Source: Escherichia phage Pollock
Strand: one strand, 5' to 3'
Sequence record: NC_027381.1
Length of the DNA: 64,000 nt
Made by a program: the position numbers and the translations under genes
Shown here: in pieces, positions 1 through 64,000 of the stretch
How positions within the stretch are numbered: position 1 is the first letter of the stretch
How the letters are laid out: the number at the start of each line of letters is the position of its first letter
Notes under the pieces: model-generated
What the model was told of the DNA's origin: nothing
Databases searched by the model: none
What the model saw: the letters and a program-made list of their open reading frames with translations, nothing else

Positions 1-15
1 CTTATTAAAATATTT

Positions 16-222
16 ATGAAAGATGAATTAATCATCATTTTAAATGAAATATGGTCATTACCAGAATACCAAAATATACGTGGTCCTAAGGAAGAATTAT
101 GTAGAAGAATAACATGTACCGGAGTTCACTGTACAAATTGTCCTCTTGGTTATTTCTTAAAAGACGAAGATTACGTCTCTCAAATCCATAAAATATTGGA
201 AGTCATTAATCATGAAATATGA
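16..222 (+). CDS. small Cys-rich protein, member of a 4-copy paralogue family (probable Zn-ribbon)
   Basis: 68 aa; N-terminal MKDELIIILNEI motif shared with ORFs 1367 and 1558; 4 Cys (C-x4-C-x4-C-x2-C); 3' end overlaps start of next ORF by 11 nt. Confidence 0.4.
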   Translation: MKDELIIILNEIWSLPEYQNIRGPKEELCRRITCTGVHCTNCPLGYFLKDEDYVSQIHKILEVINHEI

Positions 223-1135
223 AACTCAACTCCTGATTGAATCTATGTTCAACCGTCATCAAGAACGTGAACTCATTAGAAATGAATTAAGAAGTTCACC
301 TGAAATTATGGAGTTAGTTAATGCTGCTGTTAGTAAAGCATTGGAATGGGTTAAAGGAGATTACTTTGAAAGTAAGAATAAACGTTTAGCTTTATTAGAT
401 ACCAATATTTTAGAAGATTTTTATATTGATGTTGCTGGTTCATTGGCTCAGTTTGGTAAAGCTAAGTATACCCAAGTAGTAGGTATGGTGTCTGGGATGA
501 TAACTACTATGTCTCAGAAAGAGGCTATACGTACTGCTGGCGAGTTAATTTCATTAGCAGCTATGGTAGACCTAGTTGATGTGATTCCTGCGTCTATGAG
601 CATTACAGGCTCTATGGAATTGGTTTCTCGTATTCAACTTGAACCAAAAACATTAGAACTGATTGACCAGTATCAGTATCTTCCTCCAATGATTGTTCCA
701 CCTGAACCAGTTAAATCAAATACTGGTAGTGGATACCTGTCTATTAAATGGGATTCGTTAATTCTTAAAAAGAATCATCATGAACATGATATCTGTTTAG
801 ATAATATCAATAGATTCAATTCTGTAGCATTTTGTCTGAATGAACGAGTTATCCGTAATATTCGAGATAATCGTAAACATCTGGATAGTGCTAAAGCAGA
901 TGAGACTGCTGATGAGTTTAAAGCACGAGTAGAGTCATTCCTAAAAATGGAAAAAGAATCTATGAAAGTATTTGCAATGCTCATCAATGAAGGAAATAGA
1001 TTTTATCTAACTCATAAATATGACAAACGAGGACGTACTTACTGTCAAGGTTACCATGTCTCCTACCAAGGTAATACGTATCGTAAAGCTATTCTTGAAT
1101 TAGCTGATAAAGAAATAGTACCTATTGAGGAATAA
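212..1135 (+). CDS. T7-like RNA polymerase, N-terminal-half subunit (N4 RNAPII small-subunit-like)
   Basis: C-terminal HKYDKRGRTYCQGYHVSYQGNTYRKAILELADKE resembles T7 RNAP DWRGRVYAVSMFNPQGNDMTKGLLTLAKGK (recalled from memory); same operon as the catalytic half. Confidence 0.75.
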   Translation: MKYETQLLIESMFNRHQERELIRNELRSSPEIMELVNAAVSKALEWVKGDYFESKNKRLALLDTNILEDFYIDVAGSLAQFGKAKYTQVVGMVSGMITTMSQKEAIRTAGELISLAAMVDLVDVIPASMSITGSMELVSRIQLEPKTLELIDQYQYLPPMIVPPEPVKSNTGSGYLSIKWDSLILKKNHHEHDICLDNINRFNSVAFCLNERVIRNIRDNRKHLDSAKADETADEFKARVESFLKMEKESMKVFAMLINEGNRFYLTHKYDKRGRTYCQGYHVSYQGNTYRKAILELADKEIVPIEE

Positions 1136-1137
1136 TT

Positions 1138-1374
1138 ATGGCTGAATTATCTAAACCAGAACAACTCATTAAGATTACGTTATTACTCCGTAATATTCCA
1201 AATGAGTTAGATACGCATTTTTGTAGTACTCATCCTGCATGTGAAAAATTATGTGGACCTAAACATGATAAAAGTAAATGTGCTTTATTTACATGCTCTG
1301 AAGAAGAGATTAAGAAAACTATCTTTGGATTAGATGCAGCAGGGAGAATGTTAGGAATTATCCCTGATGAATAA
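1138..1374 (+). CDS. small Cys-rich protein (divergent member of paralogue family)
   Basis: 78 aa; 5 Cys incl. C-x5-C-x3-C; starts 3 nt after the RNAP small subunit stop; 3' end overlaps next ORF. Confidence 0.35.
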   Translation: MAELSKPEQLIKITLLLRNIPNELDTHFCSTHPACEKLCGPKHDKSKCALFTCSEEEIKKTIFGLDAAGRMLGIIPDE

Positions 1375-1561
1375 AGAATTAGTTTTAATCCTTAAAGAAA
1401 TAAAAAGAGTATCTGAAACTTCTAAACATGGATGTACTGGTAGTAAATTTAAAGAATTATTTCGTTGTTTAAATGTATCTTGTGGAGTATGTATATTAAA
1501 TAATATACAAAATCCAAAAAAGTATAATTATCAAATATTCTCTATTCCAATAAATCTATGA
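1367..1561 (+). CDS. small Cys-rich protein (paralogue family)
   Basis: 64 aa; MNKELVLILKEI N-terminus; Cys pattern ending C-x4-C-x2-C; overlapping start/stop with neighbours. Confidence 0.4.
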   Translation: MNKELVLILKEIKRVSETSKHGCTGSKFKELFRCLNVSCGVCILNNIQNPKKYNYQIFSIPINL

Positions 1562-1770
1562 ATAAACAATTTATTCTTATATTGGATTCAATTAGGGATT
1601 GGGCAAAATCAGAATTTTCTTGTAAGGGTGGACTGTTAACTATACGCGATACATATATAAATGAACATTTATGTGGGTATTTATGTACCTCATGCCCTAT
1701 TGTTCAAGTAAGAAGTAAACAACTTTATCCCGACCAAATCATTCAAACTTCCTCTCAACTAATTAAGTGA
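1558..1770 (+). CDS. small Cys-rich protein (paralogue family)
   Basis: 70 aa; MNKQFILILDSI N-terminus; Cys pattern ending C-x3-C-x2-C; stop overlaps start of RNAP large subunit. Confidence 0.4.
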   Translation: MNKQFILILDSIRDWAKSEFSCKGGLLTIRDTYINEHLCGYLCTSCPIVQVRSKQLYPDQIIQTSSQLIK

Positions 1771-3005
1771 GACTCAATATGCAACAGTTTACAGCTTTCC
1801 AATATATCAAATTAGATATTGCTAACTCTTTTGGTTTAGATAAAGAACTGTTTGATGACCGTATCAAATGGTTTGAAGAAAACAAAAATAATTTAGCTAA
1901 TTTGGTAAATGATGCAGATGAACCTGCTCAATTCTACGCAGGTATGTTGGCATACCAAGATGTACTGGAAGGTAAACCAATTGGTTATTTAGTAGGTATG
2001 GATGCTACTGCATCTGGATTGCAGTGTATGGCTGCATTAACTGGCTGTAAGACTACCGCTGAAACAGTAAATCTTATTGACCCTAATTGTCGTAAAGATG
2101 CTTATACCGATGGCTATAAAGTCATGGGAGAACTACTTAATGGCAAGATTGATAAGATTGACCGTAAGGATTTGAAGGGAGCTATTATGACTCACTTCTA
2201 TGGTTCTCAAGCAAATCCTAGAAGTGTATTTGGTGAAAATACTATAGAACTACAAAAGTTCTATGAAACTGTTCAAACCATTGCTCCCGGTGCAAATATG
2301 CTACGAGATGATTTAATCAATCTCTGGCAACCAAAAGCACTTCAACATTTATGGGAATTACCAGATGGCTTTACTGCTGTCGTTAAAGTAATGACCATGA
2401 AAGAAGAAAGCTTTGAAGTAAATGAATTAAATAGTTCCTTTACTCATCGTTATTGGGTTAATGAGGGTCAGGATTTTGGTTTATCACTTGCTGCTAATGT
2501 TGTTCACTCTGTAGATGGGATGGTAGTACGTGAGATGAATCGTCGTGCTAACTACGATGAAACCAAAATACAGCGTGTATATGAGCTTCTGACTGGTTCA
2601 AACAATACAGGTATTGTGGACTATACAGTAGATGATAAACAGCTTAAGAGAGCTATTGAGCTTGCTGAAAGACATCGTTTTGTTTCTACTGTGATGATTG
2701 AGTTCATTAACCATGAGAATGTACATATGATTCCTTTATGGATTAAGAACCAACTCATCGAAATTATTGAGAAGATGTTGGCTCATAAACCATATGCATT
2801 AATTGCAATTCATGATTGCTTTAAATGCCATCCTCTGTATATGAATAACGTGCGTCAGAACTACATTGATATCTTTGCTCAGATTGCAGATAGCACAATG
2901 CTTCAAGCAATTGCATCTCAAATCTCTGGTAAACGTATTCCAGTAACTAAACTGTCTAATGACCTTTCAACATACATTCGTAAATCCAACTACATGCTTA
3001 GTTAA
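1767..3005 (+). CDS. T7-like single-subunit RNA polymerase, catalytic C-terminal-half subunit (N4 RNAPII large-subunit-like)
   Basis: RIKWFEENKNNL (cf. T7 RIKFIEENHENI), GMDATASGLQ (motif A, cf. DGSCSGIQH), IMTHFYGSQ (motif B, cf. MTLAYGSK), IAIHDCF (motif C, cf. IHDSFGT); T7 sequences recalled from memory. Confidence 0.85.
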   Translation: MRLNMQQFTAFQYIKLDIANSFGLDKELFDDRIKWFEENKNNLANLVNDADEPAQFYAGMLAYQDVLEGKPIGYLVGMDATASGLQCMAALTGCKTTAETVNLIDPNCRKDAYTDGYKVMGELLNGKIDKIDRKDLKGAIMTHFYGSQANPRSVFGENTIELQKFYETVQTIAPGANMLRDDLINLWQPKALQHLWELPDGFTAVVKVMTMKEESFEVNELNSSFTHRYWVNEGQDFGLSLAANVVHSVDGMVVREMNRRANYDETKIQRVYELLTGSNNTGIVDYTVDDKQLKRAIELAERHRFVSTVMIEFINHENVHMIPLWIKNQLIEIIEKMLAHKPYALIAIHDCFKCHPLYMNNVRQNYIDIFAQIADSTMLQAIASQISGKRIPVTKLSNDLSTYIRKSNYMLS

Positions 3006-3014
3006 GGAACTTCT

Positions 3015-3395
3015 ATGTCCATTTTCACTAATGTAACTATTACCATTGACCCATTAGGTCATTACGTATCTATACCTCGTGACCGTATCCGTGATTCTTT
3101 AGGATACATTCCTCAAATTGTGGAACGTGGAGTACGTCAAGCCAAAGATGAAAAAGATGCTGGTTTCTGGATTTGGACAATTTATCAGTATGGTAATCCT
3201 CTAAATCCACCTGAAACCAAATTGAAATTTAAAGATGGTATTCTGACCTATCCAAAAGAAGAACCAAAATATCCAATAGCTGTTTATCACCTTAATAATG
3301 TTGCCGGATTAGATATCCGGTTTTGGCAATATGAACATGCTATGACTGTATATACAGTTAATGGTAAAGCAATTTTATTCGGGAGAATGGATTAA
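3015..3395 (+). CDS. hypothetical protein
   Basis: 126-aa ORF, co-directional and tightly packed. Confidence 0.4.
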   Translation: MSIFTNVTITIDPLGHYVSIPRDRIRDSLGYIPQIVERGVRQAKDEKDAGFWIWTIYQYGNPLNPPETKLKFKDGILTYPKEEPKYPIAVYHLNNVAGLDIRFWQYEHAMTVYTVNGKAILFGRMD

Positions 3396-3736
3396 TGATT
3401 AAAGTAGGTAATATGGTCAGAATGGTCTTTACTAAAGACCCAGAACAACATACATCCAATGTAATAATCAAAGGGTTATACATGGATAAAGCATGGGTAA
3501 TGTATGAACAGTCAGGTAAAGATGAAATTATTGATTTAGCTGACGTAAGCTTTGGCAACCCTATTCCAGAAGAACCTGCAAATCATTCTTTTGTAGCCAG
3601 AGACTATAGTGGTAATTGGCTATATTGGGACCATAAAAAAGGTTACTGGTATGAATGCAATGACCCAACACAACACGAAGAACAAGAAGTCTCTTTACCG
3701 ATTAATCAAAGCAAGCCAACTCAACCCATTTACTAA
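3395..3736 (+). CDS. hypothetical protein
   Basis: 113-aa ORF; start overlaps the upstream stop (ATGA-type). Confidence 0.4.
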   Translation: MIKVGNMVRMVFTKDPEQHTSNVIIKGLYMDKAWVMYEQSGKDEIIDLADVSFGNPIPEEPANHSFVARDYSGNWLYWDHKKGYWYECNDPTQHEEQEVSLPINQSKPTQPIY

Positions 3737-3893
3737 AATCTGGTTAAATGGGCGTCATTATGACGTCCATAATGTCTTTGATAAAGGGGAATATATTCAA
3801 GCTTACTTATGGACAGGCTGGGTATATTCCCCCTGCTTATTTAATAAAGAGGATTATATATGGCATTTAGTAAATTATGGAAAGCTATCCTAG
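3609..3893 (+). CDS. hypothetical protein (start uncertain; overlaps upstream ORF in another frame)
   Basis: 94-aa ORF overlapping 3395..3736 by 128 nt; no Met after the overlap. Confidence 0.25.
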   Translation: MVIGYIGTIKKVTGMNAMTQHNTKNKKSLYRLIKASQLNPFTKIWLNGRHYDVHNVFDKGEYIQAYLWTGWVYSPCLFNKEDYIWHLVNYGKLS

Positions 3894-4111
3894 TATTCAC
3901 TTTTTTGTTAATTGGTAGTGCTTATAGTAAGGAACACACATTAAATCCTATATCTGAAGAAATGGATGTTCAAAGAATCCATGATGATGAAGCAGGCGTT
4001 ACTTGCTGGATTTTATATGTTCCTAATACATCTAGATATCAAATGCCTGACCATTACAGTATGAGTTGTTTACCTAATACTGTAATCAAACCAGAAGCAA
4101 TTAAAAAATAA
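3860..4111 (+). CDS. hypothetical small protein with N-terminal signal-peptide-like segment
   Basis: 83 aa; hydrophobic N-terminus LVFTFLLIGSAYS; followed by a terminator. Confidence 0.35.
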   Translation: MAFSKLWKAILVFTFLLIGSAYSKEHTLNPISEEMDVQRIHDDEAGVTCWILYVPNTSRYQMPDHYSMSCLPNTVIKPEAIKK

Positions 4112-4137
4112 ATAATTAAAACTTATAACTTCATACT

Positions 4138-4168
4138 AAGCCTCCTTTTATGGAGGCTTTTAGTTTTA
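4138..4168 (+). terminator. rho-independent terminator
   Basis: aagcctcc-ttttat-ggaggctt hairpin followed by T-rich run. Confidence 0.55.
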
Positions 4169-4214
4169 TACAAATGCTTCTTATACAGGAGCATCTTTAT
4201 AAAACTATGTAGGA

Positions 4215-4670
4215 TTGGATATGAAAGTTAAACTGAAAGTACTTCCATTTAATAACACCAATATGAGCTTACCTAAACCAGCAACAGATGGTTCTGCTGG
4301 TATTGATTTACGAGCCAATACAGTTATGCCATTCGAACTTAAACCGGGAGAAACTACTCTGGTAAATACTGGTTTAGCTATCCATCTGGATGATGTTCAC
4401 TATGCAGGTATGATTTTACCTCGTTCTGGGTTAGGGCATAAACATGGTATTGTGCTTGGAAATCTTACAGGTCTCATTGATAGTGATTATCAAGGGGAAC
4501 TGATGGTAAGCCTCTGGAATCGCTCTACAAAGCCTTTTACTATTAATCCAGGTGACCGTATTGCTCAGTTAGTTATTGTGCCTGTAATGCAGCCTGAATT
4601 TGTTATAGTAGACTCTTTTGAAGCTACTGAAAGAGGCGAAGGTGGTTTCAACTCTACTGGAGTTAAGTGA
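4215..4670 (+). CDS. dut: dUTP diphosphatase (dUTPase)
   Basis: 151 aa; near-identical blocks to E. coli Dut as recalled: [59 protein letters not shown]. Confidence 0.92.
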
Positions 4671-5713: not shown

Positions 5714-6163
5714 ATGGGTTTATTTGGTTTTGGTAAGAAAAAAGTTAGTCAGAAAGTAGAACAAATGCGAGCTACCGCTGGAAAGATGGAAAATAAAGAT
5801 ATCGTTGAAGCAGGTATCGCTGTAATGGTTGGTGTAGCATTTGCAGATAAATCTTGCTCTGATGAAGAAATTGAAATTCTGGAAAATATCATTGAATCTG
5901 ATGACACCTTTGCAGAATGGCGTTCTGAAACTCAGGCAATGACTAATAAATGGATAAGCAAATTCCAGAAATTCCATCGTGGTGCAATGATGGATTTGGA
6001 AAAAGAATTTAACGACCTGAAAGGAGACCCTGCTGGTCAGAAACGTGCTTTGCTGTGTGGTATTGCCGTAGCAGAAGATGATGAAGGCATGGGTGCAGAA
6101 GAAAAAGCTTTTCTTGAAAAAGTTGCAGGTTGGGCAGGCATCCGTTTGGATACTTTACTGTAA
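5714..6163 (+). CDS. TerB-like protein (tellurite-resistance TerB domain family)
   Basis: 149 aa; two-part helical architecture with acidic blocks (SDEEIEILENII ... AEDDEGMGAEEKAFLEKVAGWAGI) recognised by eye as TerB-like; not database-verified. Confidence 0.45.
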   Translation: MGLFGFGKKKVSQKVEQMRATAGKMENKDIVEAGIAVMVGVAFADKSCSDEEIEILENIIESDDTFAEWRSETQAMTNKWISKFQKFHRGAMMDLEKEFNDLKGDPAGQKRALLCGIAVAEDDEGMGAEEKAFLEKVAGWAGIRLDTLL

Positions 6164-46388: not shown

Positions 46389-48509
46389 TTAAATTTCACT
46401 TAATGGCTTACCAGATTTAAGAATGTAATCAACAATCTTAGTTTGAGTTTGACTTTCAGCTTGTGCAGAAATCTTCTCAACATCTCTGGCTTGTTTAACC
46501 CCAGACTCTTGTTCAATATAATCCAAGTTTTTAAGGTCTGTATCACTTTGAACATTTTGAGCTTGGGTAGCTTTATACCCTGCATTAGCTCTGTTTTCAA
46601 TTGCTTTAGATTGCTTCTCAGCGATTTCAGCTTCTAAAAGTGCAATTTCTAGTTCAGCTTTACGTTGTGCTAATGGGTCAGGTTGTGGCTGATAGGATTC
46701 AATTCTTTTAGCTAAGTCAGGCATATTTCTTAAACGAGCAATATCACTTAATACCATTTGAGTCATTTCAAAAGGCATACTATTACCCATTGTTTGTAGC
46801 ATAAATGCCAATTCTTGAGCTTTTTGGTTATCAGCTTCAGCAGTAGAGATACTTAGTTTAAGGTCAAAATCACCAGCTAATTCATCTCTTCGTACTCTAA
46901 CAAATTCATCATTAGTAATACGTACTACTTCTTCCTCAGATAAGAACTCAGCATTCATAGAAACAAACTTACGTCCAATTTCTATAATACCTTGAGCCAA
47001 TCTACGTAAAATTCCTAATTCACGTTTAGAAGCTGCATCTAATGCACCACGAATACCAGCAGCAACATCACCTAATGCTTGTGATGCAATACCTTGAGAG
47101 AAGGATTTAACACCTGTAAGAGATTCTGCTTCATTATTCTGATACTGAATCATTACAGCAGCAGATTGAGGAATCTCAGGGGCTGTATGCATGTAGATAC
47201 CTTGTCTTGGGTCTACGTTAGCATTGAACTCATAATCCTCACCCTTATCAAACTTACGTCTGTTGGTAATATCCAGCATGTCTTTACGAATACCAGTTTG
47301 ACCGTTAGCACTACGAGCCAAGATATCAATCATTGCTCTAGTAGTAGCTCCAATAATCTTCTGGTTATCTTCCAGTAATGCACCATCTGGTTCACCATAT
47401 ACAGAACGAGTAACAGGTAAATATGGAACCACAATAAATGGAATTTGTTTATCTGGATAAGGATTCTCTTCAAGACGAATCATAGTATTACCTACAAAAG
47501 TAGCTACTATAGGTACAGTCTTACCATTACCTGAAATATCCCACCAACCCCAATACTCATAAGCTACAAATTTCTTACGAGGTTCATCTTTAAAATTAAA
47601 ACCAGATGAATCTTCAGTTTCATGGTCAGGGGTATTTAAAGGGCTAGTTGAAGATACAGAAATCTTATCCAGATTCTTATATCTACCATCTTTCTCTAAA
47701 TCGGATTTAGAAGTTTCAAAACTATAGATAACAAACTGTGCCTGAGAAATATCACCATTACATGTTGGGTCAATTACTACGTTTTGAGGATTAACTACTT
47801 CAACAGTAGGATGGTTTTTAATAACTTTCTCATACTCAATTTCTTCAGTACCAGTTTGTACTGCTACATATGCACCATTGTTCTCATATGAGTAATCTAC
47901 TGAAGCAATAATATCATCAGGAAGATTATGATATTCATTTGGATTATTAACTTTAAGTTGTAGAGCTTCTTGAATAGCCTGTACTTGGTCTTCATTCTCA
48001 GCAGGATAATAAGCATATACAGGTACAGTTTCTTTAACTGTTTCTGTTTGACTTACCCAACCAACTCTAGCAATAACAGTCCCTTCATTAACAGCAGCAC
48101 GTACATACTCATCAATGAAACGAACCTTATTTATCTTTATATTGAATTGGTAATTAAGAACTAACTGGTTTTGAATAGCAGCATCTCTGTCTTCCCATGT
48201 AGCAGGAGAAACAGTAAATAATTCATCAGTACTTAAGAAGGGTTCTGTAAGAGCAGAGTATCTCCACTCAGCTTGCTTACGAATAAGCATAGGTTGAACA
48301 GAAGAACGTCCCGGACTTTTCTTTGGTTTGGCTGAACCTTCAATCTTTAGGTTATTAAGCCAAGTAGTGATTTGGGACATCTGAGCACTATGAGAGCTAT
48401 ATGCAGCATTATAGTCTGCCCTCAAATCTGAGACTGTAGGTTCATTTTTCCAGTCTGTTAGATTGCTGGTTTCTTCTGGGTTTACTATACGTAAATCGTC
48501 TTTAGACAT
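46389..48509 (-). CDS. portal protein (putative)
   Basis: 706 aa; first large gene of the morphogenesis block upstream of scaffold and capsid; assignment by size and order only. Confidence 0.55.
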   Translation of the reverse strand: MSKDDLRIVNPEETSNLTDWKNEPTVSDLRADYNAAYSSHSAQMSQITTWLNNLKIEGSAKPKKSPGRSSVQPMLIRKQAEWRYSALTEPFLSTDELFTVSPATWEDRDAAIQNQLVLNYQFNIKINKVRFIDEYVRAAVNEGTVIARVGWVSQTETVKETVPVYAYYPAENEDQVQAIQEALQLKVNNPNEYHNLPDDIIASVDYSYENNGAYVAVQTGTEEIEYEKVIKNHPTVEVVNPQNVVIDPTCNGDISQAQFVIYSFETSKSDLEKDGRYKNLDKISVSSTSPLNTPDHETEDSSGFNFKDEPRKKFVAYEYWGWWDISGNGKTVPIVATFVGNTMIRLEENPYPDKQIPFIVVPYLPVTRSVYGEPDGALLEDNQKIIGATTRAMIDILARSANGQTGIRKDMLDITNRRKFDKGEDYEFNANVDPRQGIYMHTAPEIPQSAAVMIQYQNNEAESLTGVKSFSQGIASQALGDVAAGIRGALDAASKRELGILRRLAQGIIEIGRKFVSMNAEFLSEEEVVRITNDEFVRVRRDELAGDFDLKLSISTAEADNQKAQELAFMLQTMGNSMPFEMTQMVLSDIARLRNMPDLAKRIESYQPQPDPLAQRKAELEIALLEAEIAEKQSKAIENRANAGYKATQAQNVQSDTDLKNLDYIEQESGVKQARDVEKISAQAESQTQTKIVDYILKSGKPLSEI

Positions 48510-48670
48510 TTCAAATATCCTTTAGTTACTTTGCAAGCAGTATATATGTTTATCCTCTTTCTAAACATACTTTGTCTTCTTGCGTAAGAATTATCTAATA
48601 TTTCTTTGGATTTCTATTGTATTCTTGACGAACTTCTAGAGAAGTATTTCTTATTTACTGGAGGATTCTT

Positions 48671-49045
48671 ATGCATGAACCAGTTTCTGGTACAGCTATT
48701 ACATCAGGACTATGGGCTACTACTCTACTATCCTATTGGGCTGGTATACCTTCTGGGGTAATCATTGGTTCTTTTGCAGGTGCAGTTGTCTATGTGTTAA
48801 CTAACTCTGATGTTCCTATCTTTAAGAGATTAACTTTTTTCTTAATTTCTTTTCTTGTAGGGATAATAGGAGCAGGATATACAGCTAAAGTTATTGAGGG
48901 ATTTACTCGTGTATGGACTCAATCAGATGTTCATGTAGACCACTCTATAGGGGCACTCATAGCAGCAGCACTAGCTATTAAAGTACTATTCAATTTAATA
49001 GCTAAAGCTAAGGTTCCCAATGTTTCAGCAGGGGGAAACCAGTAA
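48671..49045 (+). CDS. holin-like membrane protein
   Basis: 124 aa; multiple hydrophobic helices; first gene of lysis cassette. Confidence 0.45.
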   Translation: MHEPVSGTAITSGLWATTLLSYWAGIPSGVIIGSFAGAVVYVLTNSDVPIFKRLTFFLISFLVGIIGAGYTAKVIEGFTRVWTQSDVHVDHSIGALIAAALAIKVLFNLIAKAKVPNVSAGGNQ

Positions 49046-49335
49046 TGACAATCATAGAGTATTTTGCTTCTTTTTCTCCAATGGAGTTAGTCAATGCATT
49101 TGTCTGTATAAGCATTGCTCTAAGATTAATGGTATTTAGACAAGGAAATGCCAAACATAAACTAAGTTATTCAATTTTTGCTTATGTTCTTACAGTATCA
49201 TCTGTTGCAATTGCTATACGTATAATTATGAAGCACTATACAAATATTGACCCTTGGGAAGTATTTCTCAACTCGTCAATTTTAATTGGTGTATTTTGTG
49301 CTAAAGGTAATGTAGCAAAGTTACTAAGGGTATAA
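49045..49335 (+). CDS. small membrane protein (holin/antiholin-like)
   Basis: 96 aa; hydrophobic segments. Confidence 0.4.
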   Translation: MTIIEYFASFSPMELVNAFVCISIALRLMVFRQGNAKHKLSYSIFAYVLTVSSVAIAIRIIMKHYTNIDPWEVFLNSSILIGVFCAKGNVAKLLRV

Positions 49336-49337
49336 GT

Positions 49338-49838
49338 ATGTCTCGTGATATTTCAAATAATGGATTGAAATTTACTGCTGCTTGGGAACAGTTAAGAACC
49401 AAAGCATATAGAGCTACACAAAATGAGAAGTACCTAACGATAGGGTATGGTCACTACGGTCCTGATGTTAAACCGGGTGACACTATCACTGCTGATGGTG
49501 CTTTAAATTTACTGTACAAGGATATGGCTAAAGCTGTTCGTAAAGCATCAGAATTAGTTCATCCATCTTTTAATCAAGCTCAATTCGATGCCATTGTAGA
49601 CCTATGTTTTAACGTAGGTATTGGTGTTATCGAAAAAGATAATGTTCTTGGTGATTTCGATGATGCTGTTCGTTTAGGGGATATTCCCAAAGCCAGAGAA
49701 ATCATGGGGCAATTTATCTATCAAAATAAAAAACCATTATTAGGATTAAAAAGACGAGCAGTAGGACGTATTGCTCTGTTTGATGGTAAGTCTTGGTTAG
49801 AAGCAGAAGCTATCGGGAGAGGAGTTAAATCTCTATGA
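49338..49838 (+). CDS. endolysin, GH24 lysozyme family (P22 gp19-like)
   Basis: 166 aa; WEQLR...AY...LTIGYGH, TITA, NQAQFDAIVDLCFNVG, RRAVGRIALF match phage lysozyme blocks as recalled. Confidence 0.8.
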   Translation: MSRDISNNGLKFTAAWEQLRTKAYRATQNEKYLTIGYGHYGPDVKPGDTITADGALNLLYKDMAKAVRKASELVHPSFNQAQFDAIVDLCFNVGIGVIEKDNVLGDFDDAVRLGDIPKAREIMGQFIYQNKKPLLGLKRRAVGRIALFDGKSWLEAEAIGRGVKSL

Positions 49839-50383
49839 TAAATAAAACCAAGTTATTAATGCTTGGTTTGACTGCTATAGCTCTCACTTCGGTGGGAGCT
49901 TTTTTATCTTGGTATATAGCCAGTAATAAGTATGAATATGAAATAGCTATATTAAAGTCAGATTACAGTCTGAAATTAAAAGCTATATCAGATGAAGCAG
50001 CATTCAAACTAGGTAATGAAATAGTACGTAATAACCAACTACAACAAGAATTGAATGAATTAGATTCTAAATATTATAGAGATTTAGAGTATGAAAAAGA
50101 ACGTAATAAACAACTTAGCATTGATGTTAGTAATGGTACTCGTAGGGTGCAATTCGCAGAAACAAGTCTTGCAACCTGTAAGCAATCCAGAAATACAGGA
50201 ACAATCTCCCCCAGCATGGGTAATGGAACCACCATCGAACTCTCTCCAATTGCTGGACAAAACATTCTCAATATCCGAGAAGGAATTATTGCAGACCAAA
50301 TTAAATTGAGATATTTACAAGATTACATTCGTAAAGTAGAGGCATCCAGATATGGCAAAACTAACATCCAAACAAAGAAATAA
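49835..50383 (+). CDS. i-spanin (Rz-like)
   Basis: 182 aa; N-terminal TM helix then coiled coil; contains embedded +1-frame ORF. Confidence 0.55.
   Translation: MINKTKLLMLGLTAIALTSVGAFLSWYIASNKYEYEIAILKSDYSLKLKAISDEAAFKLGNEIVRNNQLQQELNELDSKYYRDLEYEKERNKQLSIDVSNGTRRVQFAETSLATCKQSRNTGTISPSMGNGTTIELSPIAGQNILNIREGIIADQIKLRYLQDYIRKVEASRYGKTNIQTKK
50091..50309 (+). CDS. o-spanin (Rz1-like lipoprotein), embedded in the i-spanin gene
   Basis: 72 aa; signal peptide with lipobox LVGC; Pro-rich mature part. Confidence 0.5.
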   Translation: MKKNVINNLALMLVMVLVGCNSQKQVLQPVSNPEIQEQSPPAWVMEPPSNSLQLLDKTFSISEKELLQTKLN

Positions 50384-60086: not shown

Positions 60087-60239
60087 ATGGATAGGCGCTA
60101 CTGTTCGTCTTGCGGTACATTGCAATATAAGTGCCCTGAATGTGGTGAATGGTTTACTAAAAAGAGAAGTGACCAAGTTTTATGTAGGCCGAGTTGTAGA
60201 CAAAGAAAGTCTAGAAGAAAGAAAAAAGAGCAAGAATAA
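60087..60239 (+). CDS. small zinc-ribbon protein (50 aa)
   Basis: AAGGA RBS 6 nt upstream; CSSC...CPEC...CRPSC Cys pairs; basic C-terminus; followed by terminator; not in ORF track (<60 aa). Confidence 0.35.
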   Translation: MDRRYCSSCGTLQYKCPECGEWFTKKRSDQVLCRPSCRQRKSRRKKKEQE

Positions 60240-60307: not shown

Positions 60308-60384
60308 CGGAATGTAGCACAGCCGGGTAGTGCATCTGCTTTGGGAGCAGAGGGTCATAGGTTCAAATCCTATCATTCCGACCA
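60308..60384 (+). tRNA. tRNA-Pro (anticodon UGG)
   Basis: hand-folded cloverleaf: acceptor CGGAATG/CATTCCG, anticodon loop TTTGGGA, T-loop TTCAAAT, encoded CCA. Confidence 0.75.
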
Positions 60385-60389
60385 AATTA

Positions 60390-60467
60390 TTCCCGTTTAG
60401 CTTAATTGGTTAAAGCACCCGACTCATAATCGGATGATTACAGGTTCGAATCCTGTCACGGGAACCA
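60390..60467 (+). tRNA. tRNA-Met or Ile2 (anticodon CAU)
   Basis: hand-folded: anticodon loop CTCATAA, T-arm ACAGG-TTCGAAT-CCTGT, encoded CCA; exact 5' end ambiguous by 1 nt. Confidence 0.65.
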
Positions 60468-60471
60468 AAAT

Positions 60472-60547
60472 GCATCCTTAGCTCAATGGATAGAGCAGTA
60501 GCCTTCTAAGCTATTGGTTACAGGTTCGAATCCTGTAGGATGCACCA
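60472..60547 (+). tRNA. tRNA-Arg (anticodon UCU)
   Basis: hand-folded: acceptor GCATCCT/AGGATGC, anticodon loop CTTCTAA, T-loop TTCGAAT, encoded CCA. Confidence 0.75.
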
Positions 60548-60552
60548 TATTA

Positions 60553-60637
60553 GGGAGTATGGTGAAATTGGTAAACACAAGGGATTTAAAATCCCTCGCT
60601 TAATTGCTTACGAGTTCGAGTCTCGTTACTCCCACCA
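60553..60637 (+). tRNA. tRNA-Leu (anticodon UAA)
   Basis: hand-folded: acceptor GGGAGTA/TACTCCC, anticodon loop TTTAAAA, long variable arm, T-loop TTCGAGT, encoded CCA. Confidence 0.75.
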
Positions 60638-61491
60638 AATTAGTGCTCTGGTATATTATGTTTAACTCTTAGGTTATGCACAGTATTACAACAGATTGGG
60701 TCATCTGAAATCAGAGCACTAATCCTATATGAACCAGGTATGAACAACTTACTTAGTATTAACAATTCCGCATAGGGGTATGTTTGGGTTGTTGGTGGTA
60801 AGTAGCTGGTTAGAATCCAGCATGGTTCATTAATTAATTGCCATTCTCTTATGGCGATTGGGATAGCACGCTGGCTCTGCTTAAACCAGCATACAACAGG
60901 TAAGAGCACTGAATGTTGACTGGCTTAGCATACCAAATCCAACATTGTTGCCGCAGTGCTCTTACCGTTGTAGCGACCCTGCAACACCGAAGACCGAAGC
61001 TTTTCCTTCCCTGCTTTTTGGGAATAGCACTTCAAACAGGTATATCCTGTATATGTATCAAAGGCGTAAAAACTGGAGATACCAGAGTACTAGAACTCTG
61101 TTACCAAACTCAGGGAGTGATTGGCCTAACCAATCCAACATCCTATCAATGAGTGTACTGAGATAACGTGCGGAGGTTTACACTGTAGCCGGTGTAAATA
61201 GAGAAGACGGCAAGATAGCTACTTGTTCTTAGTGCACTCTTTGATAGTTTTCGTGAGCGACTTTGCGGACTTTTTAGAAACTGACCTCAAAGATAAATGC
61301 AAACGATGATGTTGTTCTGATGGCGGCGTAATAGCCTATAAATCAGCAAGGTCTTCCGATTCCTTGTAAACAAATTCGGCGCACTGGCCCGGTGTGATTA
61401 ATAATGGGCAACTACATCCCTCTAAGGGTATTTAATTAAGTATTCTTAAAGGGATGGGTACTCTCTATCTCCGTAAACATGTCAACTCTTT
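60638..61491 (+). other. ~0.85 kb apparently non-coding, structure-rich region (candidate structured RNA or cis-acting DNA element)
   Basis: no convincing ORF; multiple long inverted repeats (13-bp perfect GGTAAGAGCACTG/CAGTGCTCTTACC at 60899-60965); visibly more GC-rich than flanks; bounded by tRNA-Leu and a strong terminator. Confidence 0.3.
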
Positions 61492-61520
61492 GCCTCTATT
61501 AATTAGAGGCTTTTTTTTTT
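61492..61520 (+). terminator. strong rho-independent terminator
   Basis: gcctcta-ttaat-tagaggc hairpin followed by T10. Confidence 0.7.
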
Positions 61521-61534
61521 ATCCCAATTACTGC

Positions 61535-61588
61535 CTTACGCTTACGCGCTTCCATCGCTCACTACGTTCGCTTGGAGCGCCCGCTTCA
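61535..61588 (+). promoter_or_regulatory. GC-rich CGCTT-repeat cluster upstream of early gene (candidate promoter/operator)
   Basis: CGCTT occurs four times in ~55 nt (cttacgcttacgcgcttcc...cgttcgcttggagcgcccgcttcagg) in an otherwise AT-rich genome. Confidence 0.25.
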
Positions 61589-61612
61589 GGCATTATTGTA
61601 GGAGATTTTATA

Positions 61613-62641
61613 ATGGCTTCCCCTTGCGAAATGCTAGGTTATGAAGAAGGAATGAGATTTGTTGTAGTTAGTCCTAATGAGGAGTTCTCAGTAGGAGATA
61701 CTATATGGCTACATCATGATGATAAATCTCATTGTCCTCTCTTCCGAGATACTGAAGAAGATAATGAAGATGCTAATACCGATTACTGTTATTTAAATAA
61801 TGTAGCTCCTTATTCAGAATCTCATACTCTTGCTTATAACCGTGGATTCAGAAAAGGTGATATTTTATTAGTTACCGAAGATGATGAAGATGAAGATGCA
61901 TTAGCAGGAGATATTGTTACCTTCATCCATGATGATGGTGATACTTGTCCTAAATTTAAAGTACATAGAACTGGTACTGAAGAATATCTCTATCTAGGCT
62001 GTATTGATAGTCTGAAACCAAAAGTTGGCCGTAAAGTTCGTATCATTTATAACTGTACTGCAGGTCATCCATCTGGTTCAGAAGGCATCATCGAAAAAAT
62101 AGATGCAGATGGTGATTTAATGATAAATGTTGATGGTACGTGTTGCTTTCATCATCCATATTCTTGTGTTGTATTTGGTTATTCAGAAGATGAATTATCA
62201 GACAATACAAAATCTGAACCAAAAACAGAATGGACTACTAAACCAGCTTCTGAATGGAAAAAAGGTGATAAAGGAATTGTTCGAGGACAACAGAAATCTG
62301 ACCAACACAATTTCAATATTGGTGCAGAAGTAACCTTTATATCTCATGCTTGGGAAAACAGAGGTCGCTTTGAATCCCCCTCATTCCATCGTTCTCAGAC
62401 AGTTGAATATGATTTGATTGAACCAATTGAATCAAATAAACCATCTGAAACCAAACCAACAGTAGTAGCTGTTGATGAACTTACGGATGTCTCTGGTAAG
62501 TACAAATACTTTATTGATGGTGATTCTATTGAAGTAACTTTAGTTGGTTACTTTGAAGGGGAACCTATCTGTGCATATAAAGACAGATGGGGAGATACTC
62601 AAGTATTCGTTGCTAAGCCTTCTCTACTAGTAAAAGAATAA
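61613..62641 (+). CDS. hypothetical acidic protein (early)
   Basis: ORF track start 61454 rejected because the terminator lies inside the extension; ATG 61613 preceded by GGAG RBS; DEDEDA-type acidic stretches. Confidence 0.45.
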   Translation: MASPCEMLGYEEGMRFVVVSPNEEFSVGDTIWLHHDDKSHCPLFRDTEEDNEDANTDYCYLNNVAPYSESHTLAYNRGFRKGDILLVTEDDEDEDALAGDIVTFIHDDGDTCPKFKVHRTGTEEYLYLGCIDSLKPKVGRKVRIIYNCTAGHPSGSEGIIEKIDADGDLMINVDGTCCFHHPYSCVVFGYSEDELSDNTKSEPKTEWTTKPASEWKKGDKGIVRGQQKSDQHNFNIGAEVTFISHAWENRGRFESPSFHRSQTVEYDLIEPIESNKPSETKPTVVAVDELTDVSGKYKYFIDGDSIEVTLVGYFEGEPICAYKDRWGDTQVFVAKPSLLVKE

Positions 62642-62645
62642 ACCA

Positions 62646-62888
62646 ATGGTACAAGACCAATTAGCTTTATCCTTAGAAGAACGTAAGCTTTGGAGAAGGG
62701 CAGCTACTAGATGGTCTGATTTACTCTTATCCGGTGATTTATCTAATTCAGAGATGGATTGGGTATTAGCCAGAAAAGAATATTGTCTAAGACAAGCAAA
62801 GAGAACAGTACCTTATTCTGATTCTAGTAGTTTACAAGGTAATGTTAATGCATCTCTATATACTTACTTAGGTTCTTTAAGTAAATAG
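62646..62888 (+). CDS. hypothetical protein
   Basis: 80-aa ORF followed by terminator-like hairpin ggggtac-atcta-gtacccc. Confidence 0.35.
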   Translation: MVQDQLALSLEERKLWRRAATRWSDLLLSGDLSNSEMDWVLARKEYCLRQAKRTVPYSDSSSLQGNVNASLYTYLGSLSK

Positions 62889-62996
62889 TAATAAGGGGTA
62901 CATCTAGTACCCCATTTCATAAATTACTATTAAACCAATAGTAAATACCTCTATTAACCACCATCTCATATCCCAATCTCCATTAGGAATAAACCA

Positions 62997-63287
62997 ATGA
63001 ATTTAGATTTATACATACTGATATTAACCAGTATTGGATTTATCTTTGGTTGGATTGTAGGAAGATTTAACTATAAAAAGAAATTACTTAAATGTATTGA
63101 AGGAATAGAATTTAAAGGTACTTCTAATAATGAATATTTTACTGCTAGTATGTATAAGGGAATTGATGCTCTAAAGATATACTTGAAAAGTATTATACTA
63201 GATAACAAAGTAGGTAAATCTTATCTATTAGAATTACATTCTAACAAAGATTTATTATCTAAATCCTCTAAAAAGAATAATAAATAA
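62997..63287 (+). CDS. hypothetical small membrane protein
   Basis: 96 aa; N-terminal hydrophobic helix; very AT-rich. Confidence 0.3.
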   Translation: MNLDLYILILTSIGFIFGWIVGRFNYKKKLLKCIEGIEFKGTSNNEYFTASMYKGIDALKIYLKSIILDNKVGKSYLLELHSNKDLLSKSSKKNNK

Positions 63288-63422
63288 TAAAGTATTACTG
63301 TCAATATGTAATTTAATACAGTATGTATATTTATCTATTATTTTTAAGAGGGTTTAGATTTTTACTATAATTTTGTCTCATGTTAGTAATAATGCACACA
63401 ATCATTCTGTAAGCAAAGTACT

Positions 63423-63433
63423 CCCCCCCCCCC
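63423..63433. repeat. homopolymeric C11 tract
   Basis: 11 consecutive C in an AT-rich intergenic region upstream of ORF 63509. Confidence 0.9.
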
Positions 63434-63508
63434 ATACTTCACACATTGATGAGTCTTCGACTCTAGTGGAGCAATGGTGCTCTACTTAATCATGATTAGG
63501 AGTATGTT

Positions 63509-63844
63509 ATGAAACCTGTTAACTCTATCGGTATCTTTGGTGCTGTATCTTCCTCTACTGTATCTGCATTGAATGCAATTGAACGTGGTGCAGTAGCTGT
63601 AGCTAATACTGCTAACATGGCAGTAGCTCTTACTGAATGGGGTAATGAGGAGATTGAGAACCTTCGTCATCATCGTGCTATGAAGCGTGAAGTAGAAGGT
63701 GAAATCTTCCGAACCAAGTATGTAATGGAAGCAGCTAAAGAAGTAGCTGAAGTACATGCAGAAGCCAATAAAGCTATGGAGAGTGCATCTCCCGAAGTTA
63801 AAGCAGTATTTGATGCATTAGTAGCTAAGCATCTCAACAAGTAA
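63509..63844 (+). CDS. hypothetical protein (Ala-rich, helical)
   Basis: 111-aa ORF; biased codon usage; followed by hairpin aagcctactc-ttcg-gagtaggttt. Confidence 0.4.
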   Translation: MKPVNSIGIFGAVSSSTVSALNAIERGAVAVANTANMAVALTEWGNEEIENLRHHRAMKREVEGEIFRTKYVMEAAKEVAEVHAEANKAMESASPEVKAVFDALVAKHLNK

Positions 63845-63850
63845 TTACTA

Positions 63851-63873
63851 AGCCTACTCTTCGGAGTAGGTTT
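63851..63873 (+). terminator. terminator-like hairpin
   Basis: cctactc-ttcg-gagtagg followed by tttaaaaatt. Confidence 0.4.
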
Positions 63874-64000
63874 AAAAATTCTAATTCACACATTACACAT
63901 CAGATAGATAGTATGTACATAAACACATGTGTATCCATACATATCGCTATAACGCTCTAGGAAGCTCTACAATGAGATTAAGGGTAGAGGTAATAGGGTA

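Follow-up and report, generated by a model that had tools for sequence, protein, structure and literature searches.

Small cysteine-rich proteins interleaved with the split RNA polymerase II genes of Escherichia phage Pollock and its N4-like relatives

The split polymerase and its small neighbours

The early genes of Escherichia phage Pollock (sequence record NC_027381.1; the window referred to below is the whole stretch of 64,000 nucleotides (nt) that was analysed) include a run of six open reading frames (ORFs), all on the + strand, in which the two genes of an N4-type heterodimeric RNA polymerase II (RNAPII) are interleaved with genes for small cysteine-rich proteins. Gene A (16..222, 68 amino acids (aa)) stands at the start of R1 (212..1135, 307 aa), which encodes the small N-terminal subunit RNAP1. 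Genes B (1138..1374, 78 aa), C (1367..1561, 64 aa) and D (1558..1770, 70 aa) follow, and R2 (1779..3005, 408 aa, or 412 aa if read from 1767) encodes the large catalytic subunit RNAP2. These six ORFs had been listed in an original prediction made from the DNA letters, and their positions and strand are confirmed by the ORF listing. The analysis presented here shows that, in the lineages infecting Enterobacterales, helix-Cys4-helix mini-proteins of about 8 kDa populate the junction of the polymerase genes and the region upstream of it, where stop/start overlaps and the lack of a terminator would link their translation to that of the polymerase subunits. It also shows that these mini-proteins form two classes: the multi-copy family of A, C and D, and the slowly evolving orphan B.

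The polymerase itself, described in the original prediction as a T7-like enzyme made as two polypeptides in the manner of N4 RNAPII, is well supported by profile matches to PHROG, Pfam and the N4 structure. R1 matches phrog_2166 (N4-like RNAP, E 8e-116), and its residues 150-303 align with residues 116-268 of the 269 residues of N4 RNAP1 (6DT7_A, E 3.9e-43), in a part that includes the YDKRGRTY (T/DxxGR) block. R2 matches phrog_2051 (RNAP, E 1e-167) and the Pfam RNA_pol domain PF00940 (E 1e-19), and its residues 1-408 align end to end with residues 1-404 of N4 RNAP2 (6DT7_B, E 7.3e-85). Its catalytic motifs, DATASGLQ (motif A), RKDLKGAIMTHFYGS (motif B) and IHDCF (motif C), can be aligned to N4 gp16. 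The split point is that of N4 to the residue: the C-terminus of R1 reaches gp15 residue 268/269, and residue 1 of R2 corresponds to residue 1 of gp16. The split falls after the T/DxxGR block and before the RIxWFxxN helix of the T7-like fold. Judged from these alignments, R1 and R2 are orthologues of gp15 and gp16, an arrangement already known from N4 RNAPII (gp15 + gp16; PDB 6DT7/6DT8/6DTA), where two polypeptides divided at the same residue likewise retain the T/DxxGR block and the catalytic motifs; in Pollock the enzyme is divided at the ancestral gp15/gp16 boundary. The idea that the small ORFs are polymerase fragments lost at the split is ruled out, R1 and R2 being alignable to gp15 and gp16 without missing residues. 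By homology, transcription of the middle genes from single-stranded (ssDNA) or unwound promoters, a trait of N4-type RNAPII, can be predicted for this enzyme as well. The difference between the two phages lies in what surrounds the subunit genes. In N4 these genes are neighbours separated by a 47-nt gap with nothing in it, whereas Pollock has B, C and D inserted there and a fourth small gene, A, overlapping the RNAP1 start; N4 has neither small-protein family.

The junctions between the six ORFs are tight. The claim that all of them overlap holds for A/R1 (11 nt), B/C (8 nt) and C/D (4 nt, ATGA) and fails for R1/B, where the stop and the start are spaced by 2 nt. The D/R2 junction depends on the start of R2, since an overlap is obtained only with the GTG at 1767, the start originally proposed. 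The alignment to N4 begins at MQQFT, and for this reason the ATG at 1779, located 8 nt past the D stop, is probably the correct start, the GTG at 1767 being four codons too long. On the + strand, no terminator-like hairpin is found before position 3748. Promoter-like sites of the sigma-70 type are depleted in positions 1-4300 of the window (7 versus 22.3 +/- 4.9 in shuffles), and one only of these seven is on the coding strand. This depletion fits transcription by the phage polymerases rather than by the host enzyme. A single co-translated early transcription unit extending from A through R2 is plausible on these grounds.

The Pollock lineage belongs to the Schitoviridae, Humphriesvirinae. Within the same subfamily, the window DNA is about 81% identical to the Salmonella phages FSL SP-058 and SP-076 (Ithacavirus) and about 76% identical to the Klebsiella phages Pylas and KpCHEMY26 (Pylasvirus). 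Protein C is 100% identical to CPT_Pollock18 of phage Pollock; exact-sequence look-ups with the A and C proteins matched no indexed contig. The genome announcement of Pollock names the RNAPII and does not mention the small ORFs (PMC4319500). The closest comparison is provided by a Logan contig, L090, which is 96.7% identical to the window and supplies an early segment missing from it. The window wraps past the right end of the genome and into the early region on the left, its positions 61381-64000 corresponding to L090 1-2632. Between its last and its first position about 4 kb of early DNA are missing; as seen in L090, this segment contains gp2, a gp8-like gene and five further copies of the A/C/D family.

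Two classes of small cysteine-rich protein

The original prediction treated A, B, C and D as four cysteine-rich paralogues with a four-cysteine pattern ending in CxxC. Both statements are upheld for A, C and D, and ordinary tests do not extend them to B. The A, C and D proteins match a single cluster, phrog_16571 (E 2.5e-30, 2.2e-28 and 8.5e-4, respectively), as well as a local family profile (E 6e-20, 1e-23 and 1.6e-16). A family was built by iterative jackhmmer from C, searching all ORFs of seven related phage loci together with the whole window. It comprises 59 members, every one on the + strand and every one in an early region. The consensus reads MN.ELI.IL ... C ... C-x4-C-x2-C(P)L ... 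Y..QII, with C23, C39 and C42 invariant and C34 conserved in at least 90% of the members; in A, the spacing is C29-x4-C34-x4-C39-x2-C42. Conservation shows a 1-2-3 codon periodicity in which third positions are free, which indicates that the protein, rather than a DNA element, is under selection; the conserved N-terminus as a DNA-level element was rejected on this basis. From these sequence relationships, A, C and D are genuine paralogues of one helix-Cys4-helix mini-protein family.

The family extends well beyond the polymerase genes. L090 carries its five further copies in the ~4 kb just upstream of A, which brings the Pollock lineage to eight; the window contains three only because it starts at A. 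The copy number ranges from 5 to 12 per phage within the fetched regions and varies between close relatives, and a profile search detects no member in N4. Database-wide, the family amounts to 53 clusters, restricted to N4-like contigs of about 70 kb or to short fragments. Some of its positions are nevertheless maintained as slots. Of the eight phages compared, only Pylas lacks an A-type copy overlapping the R1 start, an annotated HNH gene (gp20; L002 1948-2460) being inserted there between the A-type copy and RNAP1. A C-type copy is placed after B in the same slot comparison, and D-type copies ending in SQL(N/I)K adjoin R2 in the Pollock-like contig, SP-058, SP-076, Pylas and MY01. In an Ithacavirus-like contig from IMG/VR (L012), a 165-aa ORF with seven cysteines lies between B and the C-type copy. 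The family proteins have isoelectric points from 4.2 to 9.9 and share no common charge.

The orphan B matches a different cluster, phrog_22821, over its full length (E 6e-54). Its cysteines (C29, C35, C39 and C48) follow the spacing C-x5-C-x3-C-x8-C, without the terminal CxxC, and B is not recruited to the A/C/D family by PHROG, jackhmmer or hmmsearch. In an extended alignment the four cysteines and the following (A/P)L are conserved, and H27 is not. An AlphaFold2 (AF2) model predicts a five-helix, all-alpha mini-protein (pLDDT 86, pTM 0.66) for which a fold search found no neighbour; the corresponding model of C, from a 55-sequence alignment, is unreliable (pLDDT 54). A deep relationship between the two classes may nevertheless exist. 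When B was compared with the family by hhalign using extended alignments, a probability of 28% was obtained (P = 6e-4, score 20.2) with the four cysteines in register, and none of 100 column-shuffled controls (7.9 +/- 1.6) reached this score; an earlier, smaller comparison had given a probability of 8%. B may thus be a remote relative of A, C and D, and the fourth paralogue of the original prediction may be right at this deep level.

In contrast to the A/C/D copies, which turn over, B keeps its position. It is found between R1 and R2 in Pollock, SP-058, SP-076, Pylas, MY01, TR2, EcP1 and G19. More remote members, retrieved with an exhaustive HMMER search, include Erwinia Pastis/S6-like contigs in which B adjoins the R1 stop, again between the polymerase genes, and a further metagenomic lineage whose R1 is only 36% identical and in which B is once more located between R1 and R2. 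The phages concerned infect Escherichia, Salmonella, Klebsiella, Enterobacter, Pantoea and Erwinia; the position is fixed in every lineage in which the context can be resolved, and B directly adjoins the R1 stop in several of them. Two matches of the exhaustive search, P0071 and P0073, were discarded as low-complexity repeat artefacts. Another, P0075 (136 aa), is an in-frame fusion of a helix-Cys4 domain of the A/C/D type with a B-type domain, encoded between RNAP1 and RNAP2 on two independent metagenomic contigs (L091 1349-1759 and L092 279-689). Database-wide, B amounts to 15 clusters with the same restriction to N4-like contigs of about 70 kb or fragments, and it was found neither in N4 nor in 74 of the 80 N4-like loci surveyed below. 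An association of B with a longer R1 (307 versus 269 aa) was considered and rejected, an Erwinia-type contig (L094) having both B and a 269-aa R1.

The two classes are also separated by their evolutionary rates. Amino-acid identities of Pollock R1 to SP-058, SP-076, Pylas, MY01, TR2, EcP1 and G19 are 92, 92, 83, 82, 77, 45 and 43%; those of R2 are 86, 83, 76, 79, 71, 49 and 45%, and those of B, which track the polymerase, are 87, 86, 82, 83, 64, 46 and 38%. The A, C and D proteins show identities of 42-52% even in the nearest relatives, with C at only 49% against its positional orthologues from SP-058 and SP-076. Ratios of nonsynonymous to synonymous substitution rates (dN/dS) were computed pairwise by the NG86 method, and the comparison of the window with L090 provides a pair in which dS is not saturated. 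In this pair, 1.3% of the residues differ in R1 (dN/dS 0.10), 2.0% in R2 (0.13) and 6.4% in B (0.24), against 20.6% in A (0.54), 18.8% in C (1.25) and 20.0% in D (0.69). Changed residues number 40/202 in A, C and D and 12/715 in R1 plus R2 (Fisher P = 4e-18). With dN at about 0.10 for the former and about 0.007 for the latter, the A/C/D proteins change roughly 15-fold faster than the flanking polymerase, and the changes spare the N-terminal helix and all the cysteines. In other genome pairs, dN/dS of the family is about 0.5. Over all the pairs, this one included, R1 ranges over 0.02-0.10 and B over 0.03-0.24; the substitution rate of B, as estimated from these sequences, matches that of the polymerase. 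SP-058 and SP-076 provide an extreme case, with 100% identical R1 proteins and only 54% identity of the D-slot protein (dN/dS 1.16), a divergence that suggests diversifying selection or paralogue replacement.

The original statement that no homologue of the small proteins had been described is sustained. Both PHROG clusters are annotated as of unknown function, their members thus having been clustered publicly already. No match was obtained for A-D in Pfam, NCBIfam or PADLOC, 55 family members searched singly against Pfam gave nothing consistent, and the profiles of both small families gave nothing below E 0.2 against PDB sequences. Curated metal-binding domains (zinc-ribbon, zinc-finger or Fe-S, in Pfam and PDB) do not match A-D, and HNH, GIY-YIG and LAGLIDADG domains are absent from them according to Pfam, NCBIfam and PHROG. 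No description of these ORFs was found in the literature. Binding of a metal (zinc or Fe-S) by the four cysteines of A-D is suggested by the cysteine pattern. The expansion in copy number, the contrast in rates, the system of slots and the invariant synteny of B appear to be new, no earlier record of them having been found.

The polymerase junction in other N4-like phages

The comparison with the gene order of other N4-like genomes, recommended in the original prediction, gives a double result: B is fixed between the RNAPII genes wherever it is present and its context can be resolved, and the content of the gap is otherwise unrelated from one lineage to the next. A set of 80 diverse N4-like loci was fetched by alignment of RNAP2, and R1 and R2 were located in each. 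The median gap between them is 624 nt (range -4 to 4191 nt), and 72 of the 80 gaps contain at least one ORF of at least 35 aa. The gap ORFs of different lineages are unrelated, with 0 to 10 cysteines, and some are HNH-sized. The adjacency seen in N4 is consequently the minority state and interleaved genes are the norm, the R1/R2 junction being a permissive insertion site across the Schitoviridae. The regions between the core genes of N4-like phages have been viewed as recombination hot spots (PMC4193335). Since this gap is occupied so generally by unrelated ORFs, proximity to the polymerase genes alone is weak evidence of function.

Several individual gaps can be described. In Pantoea phage G19 (L006 2584-3518), a SpoVT/AbrB antitoxin and a PemK/MazF toxin form a pair between RNAP1 and RNAP2, accompanied by a UmuD-like gene on the opposite strand, with family copies and B alongside. 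N4-like phages of Vibrio splendidus (L085-L087) possess, right after R1, an ORF with the LC-x4-C-x4-C-x2-CPF core of the A/C/D family; their gaps also contain an 84-aa protein of the helix-CxxC...CxxC-helix type and a 70-aa protein resembling a zinc ribbon, and small Cys4 proteins therefore recur in the gap of an unrelated lineage. Insertions of the homing-endonuclease type occur around the RNAPII genes of relatives. In the Erwinia Pastis/S6-like locus L094 (177-3591), the early region upstream of RNAP1 is filled by a row of about 18 small ORFs (45-71 aa). None of them matches the A/C/D profile at E < 0.01, and they may represent another expanded set of small ORFs.

The known cofactors of the N4 enzyme are encoded elsewhere in this lineage. 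N4 RNAPII acts as the gp15/gp16 heterodimer with gp1 and gp2 (PMC7145618). Middle transcription by RNAPII requires gp1 together with gp2. A jackhmmer search from N4 gp1 detects a homologue, belonging to this transcription system, near the far end of the window (63509..63844, + strand, E 2.7e-19), and a gp2 homologue (PF26984) is located at L090 3907-4320, inside the segment missing from the window. Searches from N4 gp1-gp14 placed the gp1 and gp2 homologues at these other loci and detected none at A-D. A role of B as a substitute for gp1 or gp2 was rejected, both homologues being present. Cofactors do differ among N4-like clades, as illustrated by two small phage proteins, LUZ7 Drc (gp14) and N4 gp2, which attach to ssDNA and recruit RNAPII (PMC7145618). 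Like these two, A-D are small, lineage-specific early proteins associated with an N4-type RNAPII. Unlike them, they are rich in cysteine (the words 'cysteine' and 'zinc' are absent from PMC7145618, and neither Drc nor gp2 is Cys-rich); they show no sequence relationship to them either, and a gene of its own encodes the gp2 homologue in this lineage. Binding of ssDNA or RNAPII by A-D would be hypothetical.

The remainder of the window conforms to an N4-like phage. In the left early region, a 395-aa ORF (61454-62641, + strand) is followed by an 80-aa ORF (62646-62888, + strand), whose L090 orthologue carries the Pfam domain PerC, and by a 96-aa ORF and the gp1 homologue (within 61454-63844, + strand). 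Four tRNA genes (Pro-TGG, Met-CAT, Arg-TCT and Leu-TAA) occupy 60308-60637 on the + strand and match the four tRNAs reported for Pollock (PMC4319500). In the 50-aa product of an ORF just upstream of them (60087-60239, + strand), a CxxC pair occurs twice and the tail is basic (MDRRYCSSCGTLQYKCPECGEWF...KSRRKKKEQE); this protein resembles a classic zinc ribbon and is unrelated to the A/C/D family. A 149-aa ORF (5714-6163, + strand) is the TerB/TciA homologue noted in the genome announcement (PMC4319500), its L090 orthologue having a weak match to TerB PF05099. The sign of the GC skew changes at about 28000, 48000-50000 and 60000, marking, as expected for an N4-like organisation, the passage from + strand early and middle genes to - strand late genes and back.

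Roles of the small proteins

The best explanation as a whole, given an even chance of being correct, attributes different roles to the two classes. Taken separately, A, C and D are most likely host-directed effectors of the early phase that diversify on a constant Cys4 scaffold, with confidence in this reading close to evenly balanced. The scaffold would consist of an N-terminal amphipathic helix and the four cysteines, probably forming a metal knuckle, while the surface around and after this knuckle would change very fast. The copies would thereby differ in the surface offered for binding, and duplication, paralogue replacement and diversifying selection would maintain the set, which would serve host takeover or counter-defence. 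Families of the 'gene accordion' type in large DNA viruses are expanded, fast-evolving sets of host-interaction proteins, and N4 gp8 is an example of a small early host-takeover ORFan. Like the accordion families, A, C and D are tandem paralogues of an early, host-takeover region, with variable copy number, apparent paralogue replacement and a conserved scaffold bearing hypervariable surfaces; the analogy is functional and does not imply homology. The family has no match in PADLOC. For B, a conserved phage-internal role is most likely, the best guess being a partner, an assembly factor or a regulator of the RNAPII heterodimer that would act in addition to gp1 and gp2 and not in their place. 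As such, B is the only credible candidate for a new RNAPII-associated factor, a proposal made tentatively from its synteny and its rate; a link to RNAPII is given less than an even chance, slightly more than a role unrelated to the enzyme.

A number of observations weigh against this explanation. In the window/L090 pair dS is also raised in A, C and D (0.08-0.18 versus 0.05-0.06), and part of the divergence may therefore stem from recombination or gene conversion between paralogues, with no need for positive selection; pairwise NG86 values do not separate gene conversion from positive selection. The genes are short, and a single dN/dS of the closest pair lies above 1. Host-directed activity would be deduced from just three features, namely copy number, early location and evolutionary rate. 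The position of B may reflect inherited gene order. Finally, copies of the A and D types keep their slots at the starts of R1 and R2 from genus to genus, an ORF of the A/C/D type follows R1 in the distant Vibrio phages, and the natural fusion with B occurs on two independent contigs. Through these last three observations, an RNAPII-related role of some copies stays alive.

The rival that survives best concerns B, which could be a conserved early protein with another essential role, unrelated to RNAPII and placed where it is by inherited gene order. This is doubtful, and still deserves attention. B matches no transcription factor in sequence or fold, it is missing from N4 and from the great majority of the surveyed loci (74/80) even though their RNAPII genes look functional, and the lengths and split point of R1 and R2 are unchanged relative to N4, which leaves nothing 'missing' for B to supply. 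Such a view must account, however, for the fact that B stays put while A/C/D copies, HNH-sized ORFs and toxin-antitoxin genes come and go around it, that its position holds down to 36-39% R1 identity with direct contact to the R1 stop in several lineages, and that its substitution rate is that of the polymerase.

A bolder reading, which appears improbable, would derive both classes from one helix-Cys4-helix ancestor: B would be a third, metal-binding subunit or assembly factor of RNAPII, inserted both in the gene order and in the enzyme between its two halves, and the A- and D-type proteins, fixed in position, would be fast-diversifying adaptors that link the polymerase to host or phage targets, so that RNAPII would be no simple heterodimer in the Schitoviridae infecting Enterobacterales. 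The model built on the original prediction, in which each of the four small proteins serves the polymerase as an accessory factor (a subunit, a specificity factor or an assembly factor) and is encoded with it for stoichiometric co-expression, is a shade less probable again. It draws on the translational chaining with R1 and R2, on the conserved positions of B and of the A-, C- and D-type slots around these genes across genera, on the Vibrio ORF after R1, on the fusion encoded between R1 and R2, and on the possible deep kinship of B with the family. It is not supported as proposed, because the family to which A, C and D belong has eight copies in this lineage, spread over the whole early region and five of them away from the RNAP genes, and because a change of about 20%, when R1 and R2 change by 1-2%, is hard to square with binding to a near-invariant polymerase surface. 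In addition, N4 RNAPII functions with gp1 and gp2 and with none of A-D (PMC7145618), homologues of both cofactors are already encoded elsewhere in this lineage, and the same gap receives unrelated ORFs in most N4-like phages. What survives of the accessory-factor idea applies to B, conserved and always located between R1 and R2, and more weakly to the A- and D-type slots.

It is very unlikely that the small ORFs act mainly in cis, as translational couplers or spacers that set the expression of R1 relative to R2 through peptides of little importance. The stop/start overlaps at A/R1, B/C and C/D, the proximity of D to R2, and the occupation of the R1- and R2-start slots in all relatives despite a high sequence turnover would suit such a function. 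The helix and the four cysteines are, however, conserved at the protein level in about 60 divergent copies with free third positions, dN/dS is mostly below 1, early-region copies exist that are not beside RNAP genes, and B combines low dN/dS with a confidently predicted fold. As for spurious frames, which might be invoked for ORFs of 64-78 aa in DNA of 32-36% GC and with a poor AF2 model of C, this explanation is effectively refuted by the PHROG and profile matches (E 1e-16 to 1e-54), by conservation that follows codon periodicity with invariant cysteines, and by orthologues in dozens of phages and metagenomic contigs.

For annotators, one practical consequence is that separated RNAPII subunit genes should not count as unusual. 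The early genes of N4-like phages, which are used in phage therapy, are almost wholly unannotated. The A/C/D proteins are compact and easily synthesised, and their fixed Cys4 scaffold with a hypervariable surface is the signature expected of host-takeover or counter-defence effectors. B has stayed between the RNAPII genes in phages of six or more host genera, amid surroundings that turned over, and is a concrete and cheaply testable candidate for an unrecognised component or regulator of a minimal heterodimeric T7-like polymerase.

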